DNA from: Parcubacteria group bacterium GW2011_GWD2_38_12
GTDB lineage: Bacteria > Patescibacteriota > Minisyncoccia > GWC2-36-17
Direction of reading: 5' to 3'
Length of the DNA stretch: 64,000 nt
NCBI GenBank assembly: GCA_000992345.1
Contig: LBUA01000001.1
Span: 13,542-77,541 of the forward strand
In this document: positions 7,780 to 49,916 of the stretch, in pieces
How positions within the stretch are numbered: position 1 is the stretch's first letter
How the letters are laid out: the number at the start of each line of letters is the position of its first letter
Program-made: the position numbers and the translations under genes
The notes under the pieces: model-generated
Database searches by the model: none
Seen by the model: the letters and a program-made list of their open reading frames with translations, nothing else
What the model was told of the DNA's origin: nothing

Positions 7780-8436
7780 ATGATCAAATTTGATATAATA
7801 ACAATCTTCCCCGAAATTTTCAGCTCGTATTTTGGTAAATCCATTTTAAAGCGCGCGCAGGAGAATGAGTTGATAAAAATCGGCGTTCACGATTTGCGTA
7901 AATTTTCCATTGACAAACACAAAAAAGTGGATGACAAAGCATATGGCGGAGGACCGGGGATGGTGCTCAAAATTGAACCAATTGTTAGAGCAATTGGTTC
8001 AATTTTGAAGTTAAAAGTTAAAAGTAAAAAGTTAAAAGTAAAAAGCAGAGTTATATTATTTTCTACTCGGGGGAAAAAATTCAACAATAAAATTGCCGAA
8101 AAATTGGTAAAATATGATCAATTGATTTTAATTTGCGGTAGATATGAAGGGGTGGACGAGAGGGTAGCCAAATATATTGCCGATGAGGAAATATCCATTG
8201 GAGAGTATGTTTTGACTGGCGGTGAAATTCCGGCGATGGTTTTGGTGGATGCGGTTAGTCGCCATATTCCCGGAGTTTTAGGCAAGCAAGAATCATTAGA
8301 GGAAATAAAGGGATCGTATCCGGTTTATACGCGTCCAGAAGTTTTTGAGATGAGAAATAAAAATTTGCGCGTGCCGAAAGTTTTATTATCCGGCGATCAT
8401 AAAAAAATAGAAGAATGGAGGGAGAAATTTCACTAA
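7780..8436 (+). CDS. trmD: tRNA (guanine37-N1)-methyltransferase TrmD, carrying a Lys-rich insertion from an AAAGTTA heptamer repeat
   Basis: [13 protein letters not shown]-terminus, [16 protein letters not shown] and [11 protein letters not shown] motifs. The annotated ORF start at 7744 overlaps the upstream terminator, so the start is placed at Met 7780. Confidence 0.9.
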
Positions 8437-10588: not shown

Positions 10589-11644
10589 TTGAAACGCTTC
10601 ATGCTTCATATTTTGTGTTTCATGACTGTGATGGATTTACAGCAAAAATTAGAGAATATAAAGAAACTATTTAATCAAAAAATAAGAGATGTAAAAAATC
10701 TTGAAGTTTTGGAAAATTTGCGAGTTCAGTTTTTGGGTAGGAAAAGCGAGTTGGTGGAATTTTTAAAGGGGATTAAAAATTTAACCGAAGAAGAAAAAAG
10801 GAAATTTGGCCCCGTTGCCAATCAATTGAGGCGGGAGATGGAAAAATTAATGGAAGACGCAAAGAAATCGCTTAAAATGCGCGAGGTTGGTAAATTGATG
10901 GAAAAAGATCGTATTGATATTTCTGCTCCAGCCAAAAAAATATCTCAAGGACATTTACACCCATTAACTTTGATACAAAGGAAGATTGAGGATATTTTTC
11001 AGTCTATTGGTTTTGAAGTTGTTGAAGGACCAGAGATAGAGACGGAATACTATAATTTCAATGCCCTAAATATTCCGGCTGATCATCCAGCCAGAGAAAT
11101 GCAAGATACTTTCTGGCTCCAAACTCCAAACTCCAAACTCCAAACTCCAAAGTTACTAATGCGAACACAGACTTCATCTGTTCAGATTAGATACGCGGAA
11201 AATCATCAACCGCCGATTAGAATTATTTCCCCGGGCAGAGTTTTTAGGTTTGAAGCAACTGACCAAACTCACGATATTCAATTTCATCAAATTGAGGGAT
11301 TGATGATTGATAAAAATATTTCCCTTGCCAATCTAAAGGGAGTTTTGGAAATTTTATTTAAAAAGCTTTATGGCAAAGGAGTGGAGGTTCGTTTTAGGCC
11401 CAGTTACTTTCCCTTTGTGGAGCCGGGAGTGGAGGTAGATATGAAATTCAGAGGAAAGTGGATGGAAATTGCGGGCGCCGGAATGGTGCATCCGAAAGTT
11501 TTAAATACCATGAAAATAGATAGTCGCATTTGGCAGGGATTTGCTTTCGGTATGGGGCTTGAGAGATTGGCAATAATTAAATATGGGATTGATGATGTGA
11601 GACTGTTTTCATCGGGAGATTTGAGATTTCTGAAACAGTTTTAA
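10589..11644 (+). CDS. pheS: Phenylalanine--tRNA ligase alpha subunit, with an in-frame ACTCCAA heptamer-repeat insertion
   Basis: Class II aaRS motifs (FRPSYFPFVEPG, GAGMVHP, GMGLERL). The insert reads LQTPNSKLQTPK. Confidence 0.9.
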   Translation: MKRFMLHILCFMTVMDLQQKLENIKKLFNQKIRDVKNLEVLENLRVQFLGRKSELVEFLKGIKNLTEEEKRKFGPVANQLRREMEKLMEDAKKSLKMREVGKLMEKDRIDISAPAKKISQGHLHPLTLIQRKIEDIFQSIGFEVVEGPEIETEYYNFNALNIPADHPAREMQDTFWLQTPNSKLQTPKLLMRTQTSSVQIRYAENHQPPIRIISPGRVFRFEATDQTHDIQFHQIEGLMIDKNISLANLKGVLEILFKKLYGKGVEVRFRPSYFPFVEPGVEVDMKFRGKWMEIAGAGMVHPKVLNTMKIDSRIWQGFAFGMGLERLAIIKYGIDDVRLFSSGDLRFLKQF

Positions 11645-11668: not shown

Positions 11669-12079
11669 ATGGAAGAATTTAAAAAAACTTTAGGACATGG
11701 AAAAGAAGAAGAACATTCTCCCGAAGATTTAAGAAGAGAGATAGTGGAGATGATAGCAAAAATAAAAAAAGAAAACCCGAACGATCCCCATCTTATTAAT
11801 ATAAATACAGAAAATATTAAAGAAGAAGATAGGGAGATACAAAAAAGATATGAGCAACTCTTAAATAAAGGACTGACGTTGACCGAAGAGGAGTATAATG
11901 AATTTTTTAATGAATTTGTCATATATAGAAATAAGGTTTTTAAAGAAATTGAAGAGAAAAAGACACATTCAAGTCGCTTAGACTTTGTTGGTTATTTGGG
12001 AAATAAAATAGCAGGGAAAATTTATGTTCCCTGTAGGAAAAATTGGCCAAATAAAGGGGAGAGACCATTAAAACCATGA
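11669..12079 (+). CDS. Hypothetical highly charged (Glu/Lys-rich) protein between pheS and pheT. Its stop overlaps the pheT start (ATGA).
   Basis: ORF only. No recognisable motifs. Confidence 0.35.
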   Translation: MEEFKKTLGHGKEEEHSPEDLRREIVEMIAKIKKENPNDPHLININTENIKEEDREIQKRYEQLLNKGLTLTEEEYNEFFNEFVIYRNKVFKEIEEKKTHSSRLDFVGYLGNKIAGKIYVPCRKNWPNKGERPLKP

Positions 12080-14637
12080 AAATCTCATATAATTGGTTAA
12101 AAGATTTCGTGAACCTAAAAAGATATTCGGCTCCAGAGCTAGCGGATTTATTGACCATGAACTTTGCGGAAGTCGATGGGATTAAAACGCTTGGCGATGA
12201 TTTGATTTTTGATTTGAAAATTTTACCAGATAGAGCTTCGGATTGCCTGTCGCATTATGGAGTGGCGCGTGAGTTAGCTGCGCTAACAAAGTTAAAAGTT
12301 AAAAGTTTAAAGTTTAAAGTTAAAGAAAGTAAAAAAATAAATATAAAAGATTTGATAGAAGTTGAAAATCAAAATCCGGAGATTTGTAAAAGATATATTT
12401 CGCGAGTAATTTTGGATGTTAAGGTCGGGGCTTCTCCGAAATGGTTGAAAGAGAGACTTGAATCATTGGGTCAAAAATCTATAAATAATGTAGTGGACGC
12501 GACAAATTATGTGATGTTGGAACTGGGGCAACCGATGCATATTTTTGATTTTGATAAAATCAAAAATATGCAAGTTAAAAGTGAAAAGTCCATGCCTACC
12601 GGCAGGCAGGTAAAAGCGCAAAGTGAAATTTCAAAAATTATAATCCGAAAAGCAAAAGTCGGAGAAAAGATAACAACCCTAGATAATCAAGAAATAGAAC
12701 TAAATGAAGATGTTCTTGTAATTGTCGGCTCTGATACTCCAAACTCCAAACTCCAAACTCCAAGCTCTATTCTGGCAATTGCTGGCATAAAAGGCGGAAA
12801 GAAAGCGGAAATAGATCAAAATACCAAAAATATTATTTTGGAATCAGCGAATTTCAGCGCAGAGGCAATACGCAAAGCTTCAAAACTGACTGGAATAAGA
12901 ACAGAGTCTTCTGCCAGGTTTTCCGCTGATTTAGATCCTAATCTAGCGGGTATTGCTATTGAAAGATTGGCATCTTTATTGGTTCAAATTGCTGGAGGGG
13001 AAGCAGTTAGCGGGAAAATAGACATTTATCCACGCAAGGTTATGAGTGCGAAAGTTGCTGTTTCTTTGAATGACGTTATAAGTTTATTGGGAGAGAAAAT
13101 ATCCGAAAAAGAATTTTTGAGTATTTTTAAACAGCTAAACTTTAAGGTAGAAAAGATTTATCAAGAGAAAGAATTAATGAAATTGGCAAGGAAATTTATT
13201 GGCAGGCCATACAAATATGGGGCAAGCACAAGTCAAGATGCTCCCGAAACATTTGATTGCTCCAGTTTTGTTCAATATTTATATTGGCAAATTGGCATTG
13301 AGATTCCCAGAATTTCAGTTGAGCAGTTTTTATTTGCGCGTTCCATTGAAAAGAAAGATTTGAAAATTGGCGATCTGGCTTTTAGAAAAGGAGGAAGGCC
13401 ATATTTCTATAAAGAAACTCCAAGGGGTATTGGACATGTGGGGGTTTATATCGGGAAAGGCAGGGTTGTCCATGCATCCGGAGACAAAAAGAAAGTAATC
13501 GAAGAAAAATTAGAAACATTTTGCAAGAAAGACTTTCGCGGATTTGGAAGAATAGCTGATTTAGGGGATGAGGCTTTTGTCATCGAAATCCCCACATATA
13601 GGAGAGATATCAGAATGAAAGCTGATATTATTGAAGAGATTGGCCGGATTTACGGTTATCAAAATATAAAATCAAAATTGCCTGAAGGTATTCTGATGCT
13701 GCCTCAAAGAAATGATGAGATTTTTTGGGAAAATTTATCAAAAAACGCTTTAGTATCCACTGGATTTACTGAAGTTTATAACTACTCTTTTATCGGTGGA
13801 AAAGATTTAAAGGCGGGTTTTATTATTCCTGAAAATATTTTAGAACTTCAAAATTATATTAGCGATGACAAAAGATATTTGCGACCAAGCTTGATTTTTG
13901 GTTTTCTAAGAAATATCGAAGAAAATTTCAGGTATTTTAATGAGACGCGCATATTTGAAGTTGGCAAAATTTTCACCCTTAATGCAAAAGAAAAAATTTC
14001 TGAGAGAAAGTTTATTGGCGGGGCCATTTCCCTTAAAGGGAAAAGAAATAGCGCAAAAGCTGAGGAATTTTATGAATTAAAAGCCACCGTTGATTTATTG
14101 ATGCAGAAATTGGGTGTGCCGGAATTTTGGTATGATGATTATCAGGCCACGCCCGAGATCATTGAAGGAAAAATTTGGCACCATTTGCGTTTAGCGGAAA
14201 TTAAAATAGGTGACGAGAGAGTCGGATTTATTGGAGAAATAAATCCGAATGTCATTGGAAATTATGATATAGACGGAAGAGTGGCGATGTTTGAAATTGA
14301 TTTTGAAAAATTAGCGTGTCTCGCTAACGAAGATTTTATTTATAGTCCTATATCAAAATTCCCAGCCATAGAAAGAGATTTGGCGATACTTACTCCCATT
14401 AATGTGAAAGTTGATGATGTTTTAAATGTCCTGGAAAATATAGGCGGCCAGTTGCTCATAAATACGGATTTATTTGATGTTTATGAAGGCGATAATATTC
14501 AGGAGGGTAAAAAGAGTTTGGCCTTCCATTTGATATTCCAGTCGCGGGAAAGAACTTTATCCGATAAGGAAGTGGATGAAATTTTAGCCGAAATAATCGT
14601 TGCTTTATCCGAGGAGGGTTGGGAAATTAGAAGATAG
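12076..14637 (+). CDS. pheT: Phenylalanine--tRNA ligase beta subunit that lacks the N-terminal OB (B2) domain and carries an inserted NlpC/P60 domain plus two heptamer-repeat insertions
   Basis: MKISYNWLKDFV N-terminus, B3/4, a B5 motif pair (FKVEKI ... IPTYRRDIRMKADIIEEIGRIYGYQNI) and an FDX-ACB C-terminus. The NlpC/P60 block (RPYKYG, FDCSSFVQY, GHVGVYIG, VHAS) is embedded inside B5. Confidence 0.9.
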   Translation: MKISYNWLKDFVNLKRYSAPELADLLTMNFAEVDGIKTLGDDLIFDLKILPDRASDCLSHYGVARELAALTKLKVKSLKFKVKESKKINIKDLIEVENQNPEICKRYISRVILDVKVGASPKWLKERLESLGQKSINNVVDATNYVMLELGQPMHIFDFDKIKNMQVKSEKSMPTGRQVKAQSEISKIIIRKAKVGEKITTLDNQEIELNEDVLVIVGSDTPNSKLQTPSSILAIAGIKGGKKAEIDQNTKNIILESANFSAEAIRKASKLTGIRTESSARFSADLDPNLAGIAIERLASLLVQIAGGEAVSGKIDIYPRKVMSAKVAVSLNDVISLLGEKISEKEFLSIFKQLNFKVEKIYQEKELMKLARKFIGRPYKYGASTSQDAPETFDCSSFVQYLYWQIGIEIPRISVEQFLFARSIEKKDLKIGDLAFRKGGRPYFYKETPRGIGHVGVYIGKGRVVHASGDKKKVIEEKLETFCKKDFRGFGRIADLGDEAFVIEIPTYRRDIRMKADIIEEIGRIYGYQNIKSKLPEGILMLPQRNDEIFWENLSKNALVSTGFTEVYNYSFIGGKDLKAGFIIPENILELQNYISDDKRYLRPSLIFGFLRNIEENFRYFNETRIFEVGKIFTLNAKEKISERKFIGGAISLKGKRNSAKAEEFYELKATVDLLMQKLGVPEFWYDDYQATPEIIEGKIWHHLRLAEIKIGDERVGFIGEINPNVIGNYDIDGRVAMFEIDFEKLACLANEDFIYSPISKFPAIERDLAILTPINVKVDDVLNVLENIGGQLLINTDLFDVYEGDNIQEGKKSLAFHLIFQSRERTLSDKEVDEILAEIIVALSEEGWEIRR

Positions 14638-17003: not shown

Positions 17004-17567
17004 ATGCAAAACACAAAACACAAAACACAAAATAAAATTATACCTCAAAAATTTTTTGAAAAGCCAACATTGGAAGTGACGGAGAATTTACTTGGGAAAT
17101 ATTTGGTTAGAAAAACAGGTGGTAAGACGATTGCTGGAATAATAACGGAACTGGAAGCATATGTTGGTGAAACTGATTTAGCGTGTCACGCCGCAAAAGG
17201 GCGAACAAAAAGGACAGAGATTATGTATCAAGATGCCGGAACTCTGTATGTTTATATGATTTACGGGATGTTTTATTGTTTGAATGTCGTGACCGAGAAA
17301 AAAGATTTTCCTTCGGCAATATTGATACGGGCAGTAAAAGTAGACGGTATTGATTTTATGGCGACAAGTGGTCCGGGGAAATTATGTAAAATTTTAAAAA
17401 TAGATCGCAAATTCAACGGGTTGAAATTAGGCAAGAAAAGCGGACTTTGGATAGAAGATAGGGGGATAAAAATAAAAAAATCACAAATTATAAAAAGCAA
17501 AAGAATAGGGGTTGATTATGCCGGACATTGTAAAGATTATTTGTGGAGGTTTTCTATTAAAATTTAA
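17004..17567 (+). CDS. mpg: DNA-3-methyladenine glycosylase (Mpg/AAG family); N-terminus encoded by a CAAAACA heptamer repeat
   Basis: TELEAYVGETDLACHA, YVYMIYGMFYCLNVV and GPGKLCK motifs of the AAG fold. Confidence 0.8.
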   Translation: MQNTKHKTQNKIIPQKFFEKPTLEVTENLLGKYLVRKTGGKTIAGIITELEAYVGETDLACHAAKGRTKRTEIMYQDAGTLYVYMIYGMFYCLNVVTEKKDFPSAILIRAVKVDGIDFMATSGPGKLCKILKIDRKFNGLKLGKKSGLWIEDRGIKIKKSQIIKSKRIGVDYAGHCKDYLWRFSIKI

Positions 17568-18584: not shown

Positions 18585-19862
18585 TTGGAGCATTCCGGCA
18601 AATTTTTAATAAAAGGTGGAAGAAAGCTGAGCGGCGAGATTGATATAATGGGCAGCAAAAATGCGGCAACACCGATATTGGCTGCGACATTGTTGACGAG
18701 TGAAGAATGTATTATCGATAACATCCCTTTGATTGAAGATGTATTTAGATTGATTGAAATTTTAAAACACCTTGGCGCAGAAGCTGATTTTATTGGTAAG
18801 AGAAAATTGAAAATAAGAGCAAGAAACATAGACGTAGGTAGATTAAATAATGCAGGCGTTGGCAAATTAAGATCCTCGGTTTTATTGATGGGGCCGCTTC
18901 TCGCTAGATTCAGGAAAATTCAAACCAAAAATCCGGGAGGATGTCTTATCGGTAATCGTCCGCTTGATACTCATCTTGAGGCATTTGTTGATTTAGGAGC
19001 CAAGATTGCGCCAAATGGCAACAATCTTGATATAATTTTAAAAAATAAACCCAAAGATGAAATAGTGCTTAAAGAATTTTCCGTAACTGCGACGGAAAAT
19101 GTCTTAATGTTTGCTTCATTGATGCCACAAAGAACAATTATAAAAATAGCCGCAATGGAGCCACATGTACGAGATTTAATAAAATTTTTACGCGCCATGG
19201 GCGTAAAAATAAAATTATTAGACAGTCATACCATTGAAGTAGTGGGAGTAAAAAAACTTCGCGGCGCAAAGCATAAAATTATTCCGGATCAAATAGAGGC
19301 GGGAACGTTTTTAATAATTGGAGCTTTGATAGGCAGTGATATTTTAGTAAAAAATTGCAGAATAGATCATTTGGATTTAATTTTAAAAAAGTTGAAAGAA
19401 TTTAATATTGATTATAAGTTTGAAAAGCGAAGGGGAAATTTTGCCGATATTAGAATTAAGACAAATTATCCATTAAGAGCGGCAAAGGTTCAGGCGATGC
19501 CATATCCGGGAATTCCTACGGATTTGCAATCAATCTTTGGTGTCTTAGCCACTCAAGCGCAGGGGACAAGCATGATTCATGACCCATTATTTGAAGGAAG
19601 ATTCAAATATCTGGATGAGCTTGTGAAAATGGGTGCTAATGTTGTTGTCTGCGATCCGCACAGAGCATTAATTACCGGTCGGACTCAGCTTCAAGGAACT
19701 AATATAACAAGTTATGATTTACGCGCGGGAGCGTCTTTGATTATTGCAGGCTTGATTGCTAGCGGAGAAACTGTTATAAATGACGCATATCAAGTGGATA
19801 GAGGATATGAAAGGATAGAAGAAAGGTTGCAGAAGTTGGGAGCGGACATAACCAGAATTTAG
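18585..19862 (+). CDS. murA: UDP-N-acetylglucosamine 1-carboxyvinyltransferase (TTG start likely)
   Basis: KFLIKGGRKLSGEIDIMGSKNAATPIL, GNRPLDTHL, and a C-terminal DRGYERIEERL segment that aligns with the E. coli MurA C-terminus. Confidence 0.9.
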   Translation: MEHSGKFLIKGGRKLSGEIDIMGSKNAATPILAATLLTSEECIIDNIPLIEDVFRLIEILKHLGAEADFIGKRKLKIRARNIDVGRLNNAGVGKLRSSVLLMGPLLARFRKIQTKNPGGCLIGNRPLDTHLEAFVDLGAKIAPNGNNLDIILKNKPKDEIVLKEFSVTATENVLMFASLMPQRTIIKIAAMEPHVRDLIKFLRAMGVKIKLLDSHTIEVVGVKKLRGAKHKIIPDQIEAGTFLIIGALIGSDILVKNCRIDHLDLILKKLKEFNIDYKFEKRRGNFADIRIKTNYPLRAAKVQAMPYPGIPTDLQSIFGVLATQAQGTSMIHDPLFEGRFKYLDELVKMGANVVVCDPHRALITGRTQLQGTNITSYDLRAGASLIIAGLIASGETVINDAYQVDRGYERIEERLQKLGADITRI

Positions 19863-19936
19863 AATTTTGAATTTAGAATTTAACGGTATTTAAAACTTAT
19901 ATTCTAAATACTACATTTTATAATTCTTTCAAGAAC

Positions 19937-23435: not shown

Positions 23436-24587
23436 TTGCGAGTTGACACTTTTATTTTTGTCAATCGTCAATCGTCAATTGTCAATCGTTTTTTGAAAGT
23501 AGCAATTTCATTAATTATTATTTTTCTTATTTTAGGCGCTATTTTGTTTTTTGCAGTTCCTTTTTTGTTGCAAAATATTTCTTTTCCCGGATTTTCGTCT
23601 AGTGGCTCAGGCATTGCCGGAATTTTCAAGACCATTGATGGGGGCGATTTTTGGTTTTCAAAAAATAATATTGAATCTTCAAAGTCAACGATTGGATCCG
23701 CAAATATTTTGGATTTAGTTCTTGACCCTTTTGATAATAATATTATGTATGCGGGTACTAATGGCGCCGGGATTCTTAAAAGCATAAATAATGGCGAGAG
23801 CTGGAAACGATTAGTTGATGACAATAACTTATTGGCATCTAGCGCGGTTATCAATCAAATTGCGATTAACCCTCGTGACCCCGCTCATATTTTTATTGCC
23901 GCTTTTCAGGGAGGCAGTGGCGGCATTTTTAAAACAGAAGATGCGGGACGTAGTTGGAAGCAGCTTTACATCGTTCCGTTGGCGAAACAAGACATTAAGA
24001 CGTTGGTGATTGATCCTTTAAATCCTAATTTTCTTTATGCTGGCACTACGGCTGGAGGGTTTTTGGTCAGTTCTGACGGGGGGGAGTCATGGAGAGCGCT
24101 TAAATGGTTTTTCGACCCGATAAAGAAGATTGTAATAAATCCGTTTTCATCGGCAGAGCTTTTTTTGGTTCTTGAAAACAGGGGGTTTTATAAGACGGCC
24201 GATAGGGGAGAGAACTGGAAAGATTTAACCCATACTTTTTCTGGCTATCCGTCGGCTATTAGAGTAGAGAATATTGTTTTAGATCCTCAAAGACCCAACG
24301 TTTTGTATATGACTTCCATGTATGGATTATTGAAATCTACTGATGGCGGAAATAGCTGGAGGTCGCTTAAAATTTTAGTGTCGCCCGAGACTCTGCCCGT
24401 GCAAGACATCGCAATTGATAGAAATAATTATAAGATGATTTATATAAGTGCAGGATCTAAGATTTATATTTCTAATGATGAGGGAGAGAATTGGACTGTA
24501 AAAAGTTTAAATACCGGAAAAAACGCGAAGCTAATTAGGATAGATTATAAAAATCCAAAAGTAATTTTTGTGGGGATACATAAATAA
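23436..24587 (+). CDS. Membrane-anchored BNR/Asp-box repeat beta-propeller protein (Ycf48/sortilin-like). Start codon uncertain (TTG).
   Basis: N-terminal TM helix, then six or more S-x-D-x-G-x-(S/T)-W Asp-box repeats (NNGESW, DAGRSW, DGGESW, DRGENW, DGGNSW, DEGENW). Confidence 0.7.
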   Translation: MRVDTFIFVNRQSSIVNRFLKVAISLIIIFLILGAILFFAVPFLLQNISFPGFSSSGSGIAGIFKTIDGGDFWFSKNNIESSKSTIGSANILDLVLDPFDNNIMYAGTNGAGILKSINNGESWKRLVDDNNLLASSAVINQIAINPRDPAHIFIAAFQGGSGGIFKTEDAGRSWKQLYIVPLAKQDIKTLVIDPLNPNFLYAGTTAGGFLVSSDGGESWRALKWFFDPIKKIVINPFSSAELFLVLENRGFYKTADRGENWKDLTHTFSGYPSAIRVENIVLDPQRPNVLYMTSMYGLLKSTDGGNSWRSLKILVSPETLPVQDIAIDRNNYKMIYISAGSKIYISNDEGENWTVKSLNTGKNAKLIRIDYKNPKVIFVGIHK

Positions 24588-25316: not shown

Positions 25317-26399
25317 ATGCTCACTTTTATTATTTTTATATTAGTTCTTGGCGTTTTGGTGGTTGTCCATGAATTCGGGCATTTTTGGATTGCGCGTAGA
25401 AATGGTGTTCGCGTTGATGAGTTTGGTTTTGGTTTTCCGCCAAAACTTTTGGGCATTAAAAGAGGCGAGACATTATATTCTTTCAATGCCTTGCCACTTG
25501 GCGGATTTGTAAAAATTTTCGGAGAAGATATGGAAGAGGGGAAAGATGATCCGCGAAGTTTTGCGACTAAAAGCGTTGGAGCAAGATTTCGTATTATCGT
25601 TGCGGGAGTGGTGATGAATTTTATTTTAGCCGTTGTTTTATTTTCTTTCGGGTCTGCTATTGGTTTGCCCAGCGCCATAGACGGGTCTAACGAAAAATAT
25701 GCCCGTGATATCAGTGTGCAGATTATTGGTGTAGCAAAAAATTCGCCGGCGGAATTATCAGGGATTAAGATGGGGGATAAGATTTTGGAAGTTGGAGGTT
25801 GGAAGTTGGAAGTTGGAGACAGCCAAATTGAAAAAATTCAGAAAGTAATAAGCGAAAACAAGGGGCAAGAAATAATTATCACTGTTCAAAGAAAAGATGA
25901 AATTTTGAATATCAAAACAATTCCAAGGGTTGAAATTCCGAAAGACGAAGGGGCGTTAGGCATTGCGATGGCCAAAGTCGGTATAGTTGCCTATCCAGTT
26001 TACCTGGCGCCAATTAAGGGGGTGGAAGCGGCTTTTGGCGTCGGAATAAATTTTATTCACTCAGTCTATTCAATATTTAATATATGGATTACTGACGGAA
26101 GAATGATAGGAGACATTGCCGGCCCGGTGGGAATTTTCACTTTAACCGGACAAGCCGCGCGACTTGGATTTATTTATCTTCTGCAATTTGTCGCGATGCT
26201 TTCTGTTAATCTGGCGATTATTAACGCTGTTCCTTTTCCGGCGCTTGACGGAGGAAGATTATTATTTTTAGGGTTGGAAAAAATAAAGGGTTCGCCGATA
26301 AGCATTAAATGGGAAAAATACGCCCATATTATCGGTTTCGCGATTTTAATTTTATTGATCTTATTGATTACATATAAAGATGTAAGGAGAATGTTTTAG
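25317..26399 (+). CDS. rseP: RIP metalloprotease RseP (site-2 protease) with a PDZ domain; carries a GAAGTTG heptamer-derived insert
   Basis: HEFGHF zinc motif in TM1, a PDZ domain, and the C-terminal LDGG motif (NAVPFPALDGGR). Confidence 0.85.
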   Translation: MLTFIIFILVLGVLVVVHEFGHFWIARRNGVRVDEFGFGFPPKLLGIKRGETLYSFNALPLGGFVKIFGEDMEEGKDDPRSFATKSVGARFRIIVAGVVMNFILAVVLFSFGSAIGLPSAIDGSNEKYARDISVQIIGVAKNSPAELSGIKMGDKILEVGGWKLEVGDSQIEKIQKVISENKGQEIIITVQRKDEILNIKTIPRVEIPKDEGALGIAMAKVGIVAYPVYLAPIKGVEAAFGVGINFIHSVYSIFNIWITDGRMIGDIAGPVGIFTLTGQAARLGFIYLLQFVAMLSVNLAIINAVPFPALDGGRLLFLGLEKIKGSPISIKWEKYAHIIGFAILILLILLITYKDVRRMF

Positions 26400-32133: not shown

Positions 32134-32202
32134 ATTCGCTATTCGCTAATCGCTATTCGCTAATCGTTTTTTATGATTTGCGTTTTGCATTTTGCGTTTT
32201 GC
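32134..32202. repeat. Intergenic tandem repeats (ATTCGCTA/ATCGCTA units, then GCGTTTTGCATTTTGCGTTTTGC)
   Basis: Direct reading of attcgctattcgctaatcgctattcgctaatcg ... gatttgcgttttgcattttgcgttttgc. Confidence 0.8.
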
Positions 32203-32213
32203 TTTTTAGCAAG

Positions 32214-35848: not shown

Positions 35849-35906
35849 CTTTTAGATTCTATTTAAGAAGTTAACAATTAACAATTAACAATTAATAGCT
35901 AATTCA

Positions 35907-42521: not shown

Positions 42522-44192
42522 TTATTTAATTATATAATTAAATCCTTCCCCCTTTTCTAATTTTCCGGGAGCCAGAGATTGCAATTGTTTTGTTAAATTA
42601 TCATCATACTCCATTAATATAATAACATACGATTTATCATCATAAAAATTTCGCTTTTTTATATCGTTCGGCAATAAATAAATTATATTCTTTTCAAGTT
42701 GGTTGGTTTTTTTATAGCTGTTTGTTATAAACATTGTTGTCTGACTGGACATGGGAATGTTATTGACCAGTGCGCCCCCGCTATTTATTATTACGTATTT
42801 TTTTATATCCCCGGGCAGATTATTGATAAATCGGCCGATTTTAACGTAATTGTCGGAGAAAGCTCCTTTTATATTGGGATTATTAGCATAATTGACAAAG
42901 TATTTTCGATATCCGCTAAATGCCACGTAAAATAAGATAATAAAATATAGTGGCATAATTAATTTCTTGTTGGAATATAGGAAGATTTTCTTTTTAAAAA
43001 AATTATAAAGTGTAAAAGTTCCAAGGCCGGCAAGTATGAATGTTGGAGGGATGGCGCCGATGGATCTTAAAGCATGCGGCAGGCCTTCGGTGCTCAAGAT
43101 TGACGGAGCAAGCATAGCGGAAAACCACGCAAGTAAAAATATGTGTTGCAAGGGGATGGGATTGTGCGGGAATTTTTTCAGTAATTGGTAGCAGAATTTC
43201 AGGAATTTTTTTAAACAGATGAAAATACCGATTAAGAAGAAAATGCCGACAGGCCAGAAAAGCAATGGTGAACCCGCAAAGTTATGCCGCCAATTCCAGT
43301 CGCCAATAAAATTAAATTGCGCAAGTGTCAAAATAGAGCTTTTTATTACTTCTGTTATTGGATTCTCCGAAGCGAAAATCGAAACCTGTCCGGCTCTGCC
43401 GATGAAATCATCCGGATGAATGTAGAAATAATAGAATATCGGCAATGCCGCAAGAAGGGCAAAAGAGCCGTAAATAACGATGTTATAGAAGAATTCTTTT
43501 AATAATTCTTTTTTGTTTGCGCTATTTTCAATATCGCCGGCGCCATTTGTTCTTATTATTTCAATTAATTTAAAAATCAAAACTGCAATTACCACAATTG
43601 GAACGATACGAAAAGCGATATAGGTGTGAAAACCAAGACCCATGAATATGCCAGCCCAAATAAAATTAATATTTTTTTTAGTTCTAAATCCTTTAAATAA
43701 AAAATAAAAAGAAAAAGTCGTGAGAAACGGCAACATAATGGCGCGAAAACCAATACGGGAGAAGTTTGTATGCCAGAAGCTCACAGCGAGAAAGAAAGAT
43801 GATAAAAGAGCAATAATTTTTGAATTATGAAGTATGAATTTTGAATTATGGAGATTATTTTCTGGCTCCAATTCTTGATTCATAATTCTTGATTCATAAT
43901 TCTTTTTGCAAAAAAGCTCTTTGGTCAATAAATACACTCCTAAAACTGTTAATACGCCAAACAATGCGCTTACTAGTCGCAATGCCCACGGCTCATTGCC
44001 GAATGTCGCGACAGATAGCGCCTGGATATTTATAAAAAGTCCTTCGCGACCGTTATTTTCCGGATAAAATATCTTAAAATTTCCAGTTGAGAGCGCTTCC
44101 AGCGCGTTGTTGCCGTTCATAGCTTCGTCCGGGTAAAGTCCGGGCGGCATCTGGGCTATATTGTAGAAACGGAAAAAAGTCGCTATAATCAA
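42522..44192 (-). CDS. Polytopic membrane glycosyltransferase, GT-C superfamily (ArnT/PMT-like), second paralogue
   Basis: N-terminal RFYNIAQMPPGLYPDEAMNG (DE motif in the first extracytoplasmic loop), and more than 10 TM helices. Confidence 0.55.
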   Translation of the reverse strand: MIIATFFRFYNIAQMPPGLYPDEAMNGNNALEALSTGNFKIFYPENNGREGLFINIQALSVATFGNEPWALRLVSALFGVLTVLGVYLLTKELFCKKNYESRIMNQELEPENNLHNSKFILHNSKIIALLSSFFLAVSFWHTNFSRIGFRAIMLPFLTTFSFYFLFKGFRTKKNINFIWAGIFMGLGFHTYIAFRIVPIVVIAVLIFKLIEIIRTNGAGDIENSANKKELLKEFFYNIVIYGSFALLAALPIFYYFYIHPDDFIGRAGQVSIFASENPITEVIKSSILTLAQFNFIGDWNWRHNFAGSPLLFWPVGIFFLIGIFICLKKFLKFCYQLLKKFPHNPIPLQHIFLLAWFSAMLAPSILSTEGLPHALRSIGAIPPTFILAGLGTFTLYNFFKKKIFLYSNKKLIMPLYFIILFYVAFSGYRKYFVNYANNPNIKGAFSDNYVKIGRFINNLPGDIKKYVIINSGGALVNNIPMSSQTTMFITNSYKKTNQLEKNIIYLLPNDIKKRNFYDDKSYVIILMEYDDNLTKQLQSLAPGKLEKGEGFNYIIK

Positions 44193-48684: not shown

Positions 48685-48766
48685 TTATAGATTTATAACA
48701 CACAGAGCATGCAGCATGAAGTCCGCCGCGGCGGATTCATGTTTCATGTCTCATGTTTTATGTTGC

Positions 48767-49882
48767 ATGAGCTTAGTTTTATATCGTAAATATCGTCCTA
48801 AAACTTTTGCCGAGATTAGCGGGCAAAAGCATATTGTTGAAACCTTGGTCAATGCCATAAAGAGCGGGCGAGTAGCGCATGCCTATTTATTTTGCGGTCC
48901 GCGCGGCACAGGCAAGACGACTATGGCGCGTTTACTTGCCAAAGCATTAAATTGCGAAAAACTTTTAACTTTTAACTTTAAACTTTCAACTGACCCAATA
49001 GAGCCGTGTAATAAATGTTTGAGTTGTCAGTCAATCAACGATGGCAATGCTCTGGATATCATTGAAATAGACGCGGCTTCCAATAGGGGTATTAATGAAA
49101 TTCGCGATTTGCGCGAAGGAGTAAAATTTTCTCCAGCCGCGCTTAAATACAAAGTATTTATTATTGACGAGGTACATATGTTAACCAAAGAAGCGTTCAA
49201 TGCTCTGCTTAAAACACTGGAAGAGCCGCCCCAGCACGCCATTTTTATTTTGGCCACAACCGAAGCGAATAAAATACCAGCGACGATTTTATCGCGTTGT
49301 CAGAGATTTGATTTTAGAAAATTATCGGTCAATGAGATTATAGAAAGGCTGAATGGAATTATAAAAAAGGAGGGGATAGATTGCGGCGATGATGTTGTAA
49401 GCTTTATTGCGACAATCAGCGATGGCGGACTTCGCGATGCTGAGTCATTGCTTGGCCAAATTATTAGCGTATCGAGCGGGAAAATAGATTTGGAAACGGT
49501 TCAGGATGTTTTAGGGATTGCCGACATGAGAGATGTATATGCATTTGTTGATTTGCTTATTAATAATAATCATCAGGAAATTTTTAAATTTATCAATAAT
49601 CTTTTTAATCAGGGAAAAGATATGGCGGAGTTTATGAGATCATCTTCTAATTATTTAAGAAAAATGATGATTTGTCAGATTGACAATGCGCTTGTTGCCA
49701 CCGTAGCCAAAGATATGACACGCGAACAACAGGTAAATTTGTGCTCCCAGGCGCAAAAATTTGAAAATGCCAAGATTCATAAAATAGTGGCCCGACTAGT
49801 GGATGCTGAAAATCAAATTAAAAAATCATTCTCTCCTATTATTCCCATTGAGCTTGCTATGATTGATATTTTAGGGATATAA
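48767..49882 (+). CDS. dnaX: DNA polymerase III subunit gamma/tau (short, gamma-like), with an in-frame TTAACTT (reverse AAAGTTA) heptamer insert
   Basis: YRPKTFAEISGQKHIV, Walker A GPRGTGKTT, Zn module CNKCLSCQ, DEVHML and SRCQRF. The insert reads LLTFNFKLSTD between the Walker A and the zinc module. Confidence 0.9.
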   Translation: MSLVLYRKYRPKTFAEISGQKHIVETLVNAIKSGRVAHAYLFCGPRGTGKTTMARLLAKALNCEKLLTFNFKLSTDPIEPCNKCLSCQSINDGNALDIIEIDAASNRGINEIRDLREGVKFSPAALKYKVFIIDEVHMLTKEAFNALLKTLEEPPQHAIFILATTEANKIPATILSRCQRFDFRKLSVNEIIERLNGIIKKEGIDCGDDVVSFIATISDGGLRDAESLLGQIISVSSGKIDLETVQDVLGIADMRDVYAFVDLLINNNHQEIFKFINNLFNQGKDMAEFMRSSSNYLRKMMICQIDNALVATVAKDMTREQQVNLCSQAQKFENAKIHKIVARLVDAENQIKKSFSPIIPIELAMIDILGI

Positions 49883-49884
49883 TT

Positions 49885-49912
49885 TTCTAGCTTCTAGCTT
49901 CTAGCTTCTAGC
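49885..49912. repeat. TTCTAGC heptamer x4 tandem repeat immediately upstream of tRNA-Gln
   Basis: ttctagcttctagcttctagcttctagc. Confidence 0.85.
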
Positions 49913-49916
49913 TTTT

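Follow-up and report, generated by a model that had tools for sequence, protein, structure and literature searches.

A candidate NlpC/P60 amidase domain within the B5 domain of a patescibacterial phenylalanyl-tRNA synthetase beta subunit

Bacterial aminoacyl-tRNA synthetases rarely acquire catalytic domains, and such gains have usually revealed editing, signalling or metabolite synthesis. What, then, is a domain of the cell-wall-hydrolase type doing inside an essential synthetase subunit? The question is raised by a 64,000-nucleotide stretch of DNA from Parcubacteria group bacterium GW2011_GWD2_38_12 (contig LBUA01000001.1, positions 13,542 to 77,541 of the forward strand; hereafter the window), in which pheT, the gene for the beta subunit of phenylalanyl-tRNA synthetase (PheRS), carries an NlpC/P60 papain-like domain within its B5 domain. 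An original prediction made from the sequence alone had proposed this arrangement and suggested either a moonlighting activity or a structural graft. The analysis described here points, with confidence evenly divided for and against, to a bifunctional PheRS beta subunit in which a catalytically competent NlpC/P60 domain, a putative cytoplasmic gamma-D-glutamyl amidase, is grafted into the B5 hairpin.

Position and soundness of the insert

The pheT gene is a single unbroken open reading frame (ORF), as predicted, and its product scores 565.6 bits against the NCBIfam equivalog pheT_bact (TIGR00472; cutoff 402.65). The full-length AlphaFold2 (AF2) model, built from a 78-sequence alignment, has a mean predicted local distance difference test (pLDDT) score of 89.5, and its top Foldseek matches are bacterial PheRS beta chains. 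The gene and its parts are as follows.

12076-14637, plus strand: pheT, PheRS beta subunit of 853 amino acids (aa), lacking B2, with the NlpC/P60 insert (TIGR00472, AF2, Foldseek)
12385-12996, plus strand: B3/4 editing domain, residues 104-307 (Pfam B3_4, E 4.4e-55)
13033-13152, plus strand: N-terminal half of B5, residues ~320-359, strand-helix-helix-strand (alignment with E. coli PheT up to residue 438; AF2)
13153-13569, plus strand: inserted NlpC/P60 (MEROPS C40) domain, residues ~360-498, ~138 aa (Pfam PF00877 at residues 376-485, AF2, Foldseek; segment missing from insert-less relatives)
13258-13260, plus strand: codon of the catalytic nucleophile Cys395, D-C-S motif (aligned with the catalytic Cys of 7cfl, 4xcm and 8v3w)
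13435-13437, plus strand: codon of His454, the catalytic histidine by alignment with solved enzymes
13471-13473, plus strand: codon of His466, which completes the triad (alignment with the third His in solved enzymes)
13570-13659, plus strand: C-terminal half of B5, residues 499-528 (Pfam B5 profile positions 34-67)
13666-14304, plus strand: catalytic-like module (CLM; B6/B7), residues 531-743 (Pfam PF17759, E 6e-38)
14353-14631, plus strand: FDX-ACB anticodon-binding domain (B8), residues 760-852 (Pfam PF03147, E 2.7e-27)

The insert occupies the hairpin that joins the final two B5 strands. In phmmer alignments with the Salmonella and E. coli proteins, PheT is continuous up to residue 359 (E. 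coli 438, '...RRLGCEVT') and resumes at residue 497 (E. coli 440), and approximately 138 extra residues thus stand in place of a hairpin of 3-5 residues. An alignment of 120 homologues gives matching boundaries, with the insert-less proteins running from '...LGFKV' straight into 'xLxVxVPTxRxDI'; the junctions in the window protein read …VEKI/YQEK… and …LGDE/AFVI…. The Pfam B5 match covers the second half of the domain only (residues 495-528, profile positions 34-67 of 67), and together with the E. coli alignment this bears out the proposed splitting of the B5 motif. The interval first given for the insert, 13150-13590, located it correctly but ran too far at its end, as the last ~21 nucleotides already belong to B5.

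Both sides of B5 are preserved around the insert. The AF2 model places strand 325-329, helices 331-338 and 344-353 and strand 357-362 before it, and strand 499-505 and helix 515-526 after it. The C-terminal half retains the Mg-site residues Asp511, Asp517, Glu520 and Glu521, and in one homologue alignment (A1) R509, D511, E520 and E521 are invariant. The opening helix of the insert follows strand 357-362 directly, with no linker on the N-terminal side and ~6 residues on the C-terminal side, and the graft as modelled is tight rather than tethered.

The oddity of the architecture is the only point in favour of an artefact, that is, a chimeric assembly, a frameshift fusion of two genes, or a selfish element excised after translation such as an intein, and these explanations retain next to no probability. 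An in-frame insert at one and the same site was found in 111 independent PheT sequences, all labelled Patescibacteria or Parcubacteria and derived from many samples and assemblers, and an artefact is excluded by this recurrence; the misassembly that had been named as a possible refutation falls with it. Furthermore, the GC content across the insert (0.33-0.40) equals that of the flanks and is uniform at the junctions, and insert and host have diverged together. An intein or other mobile element was rejected on the same composition and number of independent copies and on the absence of splicing motifs: Pfam gives no Hint or intein match, and the junctions have neither an N-terminal Cys or Ser nor a C-terminal His-Asn followed by a nucleophile.

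Fold, conservation and spread of the insert

The assignment to NlpC/P60 is clear from both profile and structure. The full protein matches Pfam NLPC_P60 with an E-value of 7e-19 (68.1 bits against a cutoff of 23), and the excised segment scores 72.5 bits against the same cutoff. Apart from this family, Pfam reports weak matches of the block to the related families C92 and LRAT and none to a known synthetase editing fold (B3/4, INS/YbaK, CP1, AlaX or DTD). The insert is modelled at a pLDDT of 94-97 within the full-length protein and of 93.8 alone, as an independent papain-like alpha+beta domain with Cys395 at the start of helix 395-405. Foldseek aligns this model to more than 40 solved NlpC/P60 chains with template modelling (TM) scores of 0.72-0.81, reaching ~0.8 for 7cfl and for the DL-endopeptidase MepS. 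The profile and fold checks proposed with the original prediction therefore both came out in its favour, and all four of its hallmark motifs were recovered (RPYKYG at residues 377-382, FDCSS at 393-397, GHVGV at 453-457 and VVHAS at 464-468).

The catalytic residues are those of active enzymes. In phmmer alignments, Cys395, His454 and His466 match the triads of C. difficile Acd24020 (7cfl), T. thermophilus TTHA0266 (4xcm) and the diffocin hydrolase (8v3w), in the non-permuted order Cys-His-His. Across the 111 embedded copies the Cys and the His are present without exception and the third His in 103, with N, Q, Y, F or G in the remainder; the D-C-S, PR and GD motifs are near-invariant.

After the catalytic dyad, the most conserved part of NlpC/P60 enzymes is an S1 site tailored to gamma-D-Glu, as described for YkfC, where Tyr226, Asp237, Ser239 and a small residue at position 257 make it up and Arg255 takes part in the hydrogen-bond network (PMC2954226). 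The equivalents in the insert, mapped by motif and spacing, are Tyr378, Asp394, Ser396, Arg412 and Ser414. Depending on the residue, 48-50 of the 50 embedded sequences and 79-80 of the 80 stand-alone ones match (at least 96%). Embedded copies have no residue other than Ser, Thr or Ala at position 414, and a single stand-alone protein has Gly there. The insert is also very basic, with a mean net charge of +11.5 versus -2.6 for the ~700-aa host part. As to wall targeting, PheT has no export leader, and Pfam finds no LysM, SH3b or leader-associated domain in it.

The insert is widely distributed. It is present in 50 of the 120 best PheT homologues (41-99% identity; labels Parcubacteria, Patescibacteria and Terrybacteria), and some insert-bearing proteins are entered in databases as, for example, 'C40 family peptidase' or 'phenylalanine--tRNA ligase beta subunit-related protein'. 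A scan of GTDB with one genome per species identified 207 loci with a relative of the domain; in 61 of the best 80 the domain lies inside a PheT-length ORF (locus titles Paceibacterota/Paceibacteria, Nomura-, Zambryski-, Yonath-, Campbell- and Terrybacteria). Nearly all insert-bearing loci have pheS directly upstream on the same strand, and each has one copy of the domain. Orthologues in related candidate phyla radiation genomes, to which the original prediction had pointed as a check, thus share the insert at the same site. Among 1.84 billion cluster representatives (50% identity), 223 matched at E <= 1e-30; of the best 150, approximately 70 are single-domain matches in proteins 750-840 aa long that have the domain at ~335-480, and four are proteins of 923-936 aa with the domain at ~450-600.

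The searches also brought up two other arrangements. Short ORFs of 227-230 aa (L074 391-1071, plus strand; P0194) consist of the first B5 half, the NlpC/P60 insert and a degenerate B5 remnant, and in L074 an ORF matching the B3/4 part of PheT precedes the short one; their most probable explanation is frameshifting or decay of a pheT copy, or a sequencing error. In addition, many proteins in the representative search contain 3-9 tandem copies of a closely related NlpC/P60 domain (P0327-P0347), e.g., P0327 with 1183 aa and nine matched stretches, and these surpass the PheT inserts in summed score.

Substitution patterns show that purifying selection acts on the insert as it does on the remainder of PheT. 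Mean pairwise identity among 50 insert-bearing proteins is 51% for the insert, 50% for the host, 60% for B3/4 and 42% for CLM, and comparison with L088, an 85%-identical relative, gives ratios of nonsynonymous to synonymous substitution rates (dN/dS) of 0.137 (insert) and 0.132 (host). In the same comparison dS is 0.25 for the insert (13153-13569) versus 0.62 for the rest of pheT while dN/dS is equal, possibly reflecting a recent recombination tract, local mRNA constraint or sampling noise over 139 codons. Insert and host distances are correlated (r = 0.72, Mantel p ~0.001), and co-inheritance is therefore indicated.

All trees are distance trees. In the neighbour-joining point-estimate tree all embedded copies form one group, with strict monophyly in only 4-7 of 30 bootstrap replicates, and the stand-alone proteins group apart from them. 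Distant Firmicutes tend to join the embedded side in bootstraps, so that the trees favour no root and no direction of descent between embedded and stand-alone copies, and an origin of the insert in the stand-alone family was not borne out. In the host tree, 11 insert-bearing PheT groups are interspersed with insert-less ones. The single embedded group, the interspersed host groups and the identical insertion site together suggest one gain followed by several clean losses.

Stand-alone relatives and possible function

The closest relatives of the insert are approximately 80 leaderless patescibacterial proteins of ~140 aa, with 42-54% identity to it (P0121-P0193; labels Jorgensen-, Wolfe-, Portnoy-, Woyke- and Tagabacteria). 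They have in common with the insert the motifs GKPYKYGA…APxxFDCSSF…PRxxxxQ…GxGHV and a strongly basic charge. Their Cys motif starts at a median position of 35 and no hydrophobic segment precedes it, and, being leaderless, they are presumably cytoplasmic. The third triad residue is more variable here (His in 38, Asn in 25 and Ser in 8 of 80). Some of these genes lie close to genes for PheRS: in L067 and L034 (Jorgensenbacteria) one is divergently paired with an insert-less pheS-pheT operon, in a third Jorgensenbacteria locus (L027/L003) with a 383-aa gene combining PheS and FDX-ACB, and in L011 the distance to pheS-pheT is 4 kb. Pfam matches among 120 neighbouring ORFs, from 19 loci, were to GatA in 5, RpoD in 5, PheS in 4, DnaG in 4, LigA in 3 and Pth in 2. 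Moreover, the domain is fused to the N-terminus of QueH, an epoxyqueuosine reductase that acts on tRNA, in proteins of 323-337 aa (L078 768-1736, plus strand; L032 1-948; P0207-P0210; QueH match E 1e-56), which are confined to one narrow lineage of four clusters (75-93% identity) and two GTDB species.

The 383-aa PheS+FDX-ACB protein is of note in its own right (L027 4609-5757 and L003 4621-5772, both minus strand; Candidatus Jorgensenbacteria GW2011_GWA1_48_11). It has the architecture of monomeric mitochondrial PheRS and falls just under the cutoffs of two NCBIfam models: SrmL, the 'PheS-related mystery ligase' (264 versus 300 bits), and pheS_mito (244 versus 258 bits). Its gene adjoins gatCA and ligA.

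The conservation of the S1 residues in embedded and stand-alone copies makes gamma-D-glutamyl amide hydrolysis the best-supported chemistry, and because the protein is cytoplasmic, murein stem peptides and muropeptides are the obvious substrates. The insert would thus act as a cytoplasmic thiol amidase beside the PheRS function, cleaving gamma-D-glutamyl-diamino-acid bonds in soluble peptidoglycan stem peptides or muropeptides. Its products would serve recycling or salvage, nucleotide precursors may be further substrates, and PheRS would provide a stable, constitutively expressed scaffold. Several observations weigh against this proposal. The S1 pocket was mapped by motif spacing and not by an inspected superposition. 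At the position of YkfC Asp256 the embedded copies have Met, Pro, Ile or Val and the stand-alone copies Thr, Ser or Val, and Pfam detects no SH3b domain in the insert-bearing protein. No peptidoglycan-recycling or mur genes are prominent among the neighbours of stand-alone genes at the 19 loci. The basic charge of the insert would fit RNA binding too, and the domain family is repeatedly tied to tRNA enzymes, through PheT insertion, pheS pairing and QueH fusion.

These last points lead to a reading that we regard as rather unlikely, namely that the substrate of the papain-like insert is linked to tRNA and is not a cell-wall peptide. In this scheme an aminoacyl-, N-blocked aminoacyl- or peptidyl-tRNA would be attacked at its ester bond by the thiol of the insert, leading to hydrolysis (proofreading or rescue) or acyl transfer, and papain-fold thiol enzymes do readily cleave esters. 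In its favour are the insertion in PheT itself; the pairing of stand-alone genes with pheS-pheT or PheS+FDX-ACB genes and their 4-kb proximity in L011; neighbours such as PheS (4/19 loci), GatA (5/19) and Pth (2/19); the N-terminal fusion to QueH; a net charge of about +11; and the tight graft, which lacks an N-side linker and suggests that the domain is mounted on PheRS in a fixed geometry. However, the gamma-D-Glu S1 residues are retained, the domain has 30-45% identity to true peptidoglycan endopeptidases, the basic charge is typical of wall hydrolases too, and we know of no NlpC/P60 enzyme that acts on tRNA. Nor does the insert replace a lost editing site, because the B3/4 editing residues His155, Glu256 and Thr276 (aligned to E. 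coli H265, E334 and T354) are conserved with and without the insert; in alignment A1 Glu256 is invariant and His155 and Thr276 are at least 90% conserved. A role as substitute for a degenerate B3/4 site was rejected on these grounds. The associations with tRNA enzymes could moreover be due to chance or inherited synteny, since these tiny genomes consist to a large extent of translation genes, three of the four pheS-adjacent loci belong to a single lineage (Jorgensenbacteria) and are not independent, and the QueH fusion is confined to a narrow lineage. Distinctly improbable is the broader proposal that the leaderless patescibacterial NlpC/P60 family, including the PheRS copy, constitutes an unrecognised class of tRNA-associated thiol hydrolases or acyltransferases that deacylate or re-route aminoacyl- or N-acyl-aminoacyl-tRNA. 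If such a class existed, translation and envelope synthesis could be directly coupled in minimal-genome organisms, for instance by the movement of an amino acid from tRNA onto a gamma-D-Glu-containing cell-wall precursor.

The insert might instead be a tolerated or structural graft with no catalytic role, serving as a binding or oligomerisation module or as a basic surface for tRNA affinity. Its site, on a surface hairpin in a domain that is not known to take part in catalysis, would suit this, as would its very basic character and its dispensability, given that several lineages in the PheT tree lack it among the 11 interspersed insert-bearing groups. Non-catalytic NlpC/P60 domains such as RipD, for which NCBIfam has a separate model (NlpC_inact_RipD), have nonetheless lost the catalytic and pocket residues that the PheT insert keeps. 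Here the Cys and His are invariant (111/111), the third His is nearly so (103/111), the pocket residues persist down to ~40% identity and dN/dS is 0.14. A purely passive graft is disfavoured by the invariant dyad, and we consider a non-catalytic role quite improbable.

Should the preferred reading, murein-peptide cleavage by a PheRS-borne amidase, be correct, it would represent an unusual fusion of cell-wall turnover with translation, whereas tRNA-bound substrates would imply new proofreading or transfer chemistry. Patescibacteria have tiny genomes and depend on scavenging, and their envelope and amino-acid economy are poorly understood. An apparently active cysteine amidase has been borne by an essential synthetase subunit over a long span of evolution in a large part of this group. 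The B5 insert also provides a clean sequence marker for a patescibacterial clade.

Host protein, window and known systems

Apart from the insert, the window pheT appears to be the housekeeping PheRS beta gene of the organism, with the PheRS parts, including the pheS partner, intact in sequence. No second pheT and no stand-alone NlpC/P60 gene was found within the 64-kb window. The missing B2 oligonucleotide-binding (OB) domain, which had been remarked on at the outset, is indeed absent: the window PheT has no PF01588 match and the alignment jumps from E. coli residue 40 to 154, leaving residues 41-153 of the E. coli protein with no counterpart. This loss is a trait separate from the insert, because insert-less relatives (665-720 aa) likewise lack B2 and some PheTs have both domains (L076 and the four representatives of 923-936 aa); a coupling of B2 loss to the insert was rejected for the same reason. 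The proteins with both a B2 tRNA_bind domain and the NlpC/P60 insert have 901-936 aa (L076 4663-7365, plus strand; P0359, P0365, P0367 and P0437), and the insertion therefore either is older than the loss of B2 or is present in lineages retaining B2.

A second PheT insertion of ~22 residues lies in B3/4 (residues ~164-187, 12565-12636; 'NMQVKSEKSMPTGRQVKAQSEISK'). E. coli PheT has no such insertion, close relatives differ in it, and the model predicts it to be disordered (pLDDT 51-65).

Two further genes of the operon precede pheT.

10589-11644, plus strand: pheS, PheRS alpha subunit, directly upstream in the same operon (Pfam tRNA-synt_2d, E 1.9e-100; Phe_tRNA-synt_N)
11669-12079, plus strand: small ORF of 136 aa between pheS and pheT, lineage-specific (no Pfam match)

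The real start of pheS may be an internal ATG. The small ORF encodes a charged protein, and its stop overlaps the pheT start (ATGA). Relatives have an ORF at the equivalent place (L088 1618-2022, 38% identity; L087 4675-4995, 21%) although their PheT identities are far higher (85% and 65%, respectively), and from this divergence the ORF appears to be a fast-evolving operon member. The order pyrG, small ORF, pheS, small ORF, pheT, gyrB is conserved.

Short tandem heptanucleotide arrays (period 7, some 14) are scattered through the window, with 3.6-5.4 copies of many different units and 81-100% matches.

8008-8045, 11117-11151, 12288-12324, 12736-12767, 17007-17032, 19854-19882, 23460-23489: heptamer arrays
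25785-25817, 32134-32207, 35871-35895, 43821-43850, 48736-48769, 48960-48991, 49885-49914: heptamer arrays, continued

The unit CTCCAAA occurs in frame in both pheS ('QTPNSKLQTPK') and pheT ('TPNSKLQTPS'), and the pheT array is missing from the 85%-identical relative and predicted to be disordered (pLDDT 54). This looks like an active process of heptamer expansion in the lineage. An Rfam scan of the window found one tRNA only and no rRNA.

With regard to novelty, no paper was found on an NlpC/P60 domain in PheRS or in any other synthetase, subscription-only literature lying outside the search. The statement that this is not a known PheT architecture therefore holds for the searchable literature, but many such proteins are already public with automatic Pfam calls. 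Synthetases with hydrolytic insertions have precedents, as do NlpC/P60 amidases of the cytoplasm; what is new is their combination in an NlpC/P60-PheRS protein, the B5 position and the breadth of occurrence in Patescibacteria.

Four known systems frame the comparison. The host protein resembles canonical PheRS beta (E. coli 3pco_B, T. thermophilus 1pys_B) in its domain order (B1, B3/4, B5, CLM, FDX-ACB), its editing and Mg-site residues and the pheS-pheT operon, but the canonical subunit has a B2 OB domain and a B5 hairpin of 3-5 residues as against 138. Synthetases with hydrolytic editing domains (INS of ProRS, CP1 of LeuRS, IleRS and ValRS, and N2 of ThrRS) offer a parallel in that a synthetase has acquired, within its chain or attached to it, an autonomous hydrolytic domain that selection maintains. 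In contrast to the PheT insert, those domains have unrelated folds, with no papain fold among them, and a demonstrated aminoacyl-tRNA substrate.

The insert itself is most similar to secreted or wall-associated DL-endopeptidases, such as Acd24020 (7cfl), E. coli MepS/Spr (2k1g, 7v6s, 8xud), TTHA0266 (4xcm) and B. subtilis LytE and CwlO, with which it has in common the papain-like fold (TM 0.72-0.81), 30-45% domain identity, and a Cys-His-His triad and PYxYG, DCS and PRxS motifs that align residue for residue. These enzymes, however, work outside the membrane and are equipped with signal peptides, lipoboxes or wall-binding modules (LysM, SH3b), whereas the insert is leaderless and lies within a cytoplasmic aminoacyl-tRNA synthetase; it also has a PYKYG-DCS loop 4-5 residues longer and Tyr for the usual Trp. 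Leaderless cytoplasmic NlpC/P60 enzymes of peptidoglycan recycling include YkfC of B. subtilis, dipeptidyl-peptidase VI of B. sphaericus and a chlamydial YkfC-like enzyme (PMC2954226, PMC9928106). They provide the precedent for a leaderless amidase that cleaves gamma-D-Glu-diamino-acid bonds of murein peptides in the cytoplasm, and the insert has the same S1 set of Tyr, Asp, Ser, Arg and a small residue at the 257 position. In YkfC, Asp256 and a Tyr of the SH3b domain restrict the enzyme to peptides with a free L-Ala (PMC2954226). The insert, unlike the YkfC-type enzymes, has neither an SH3b domain nor an Asp256 equivalent, and no YkfC-type enzyme is fused to a synthetase.

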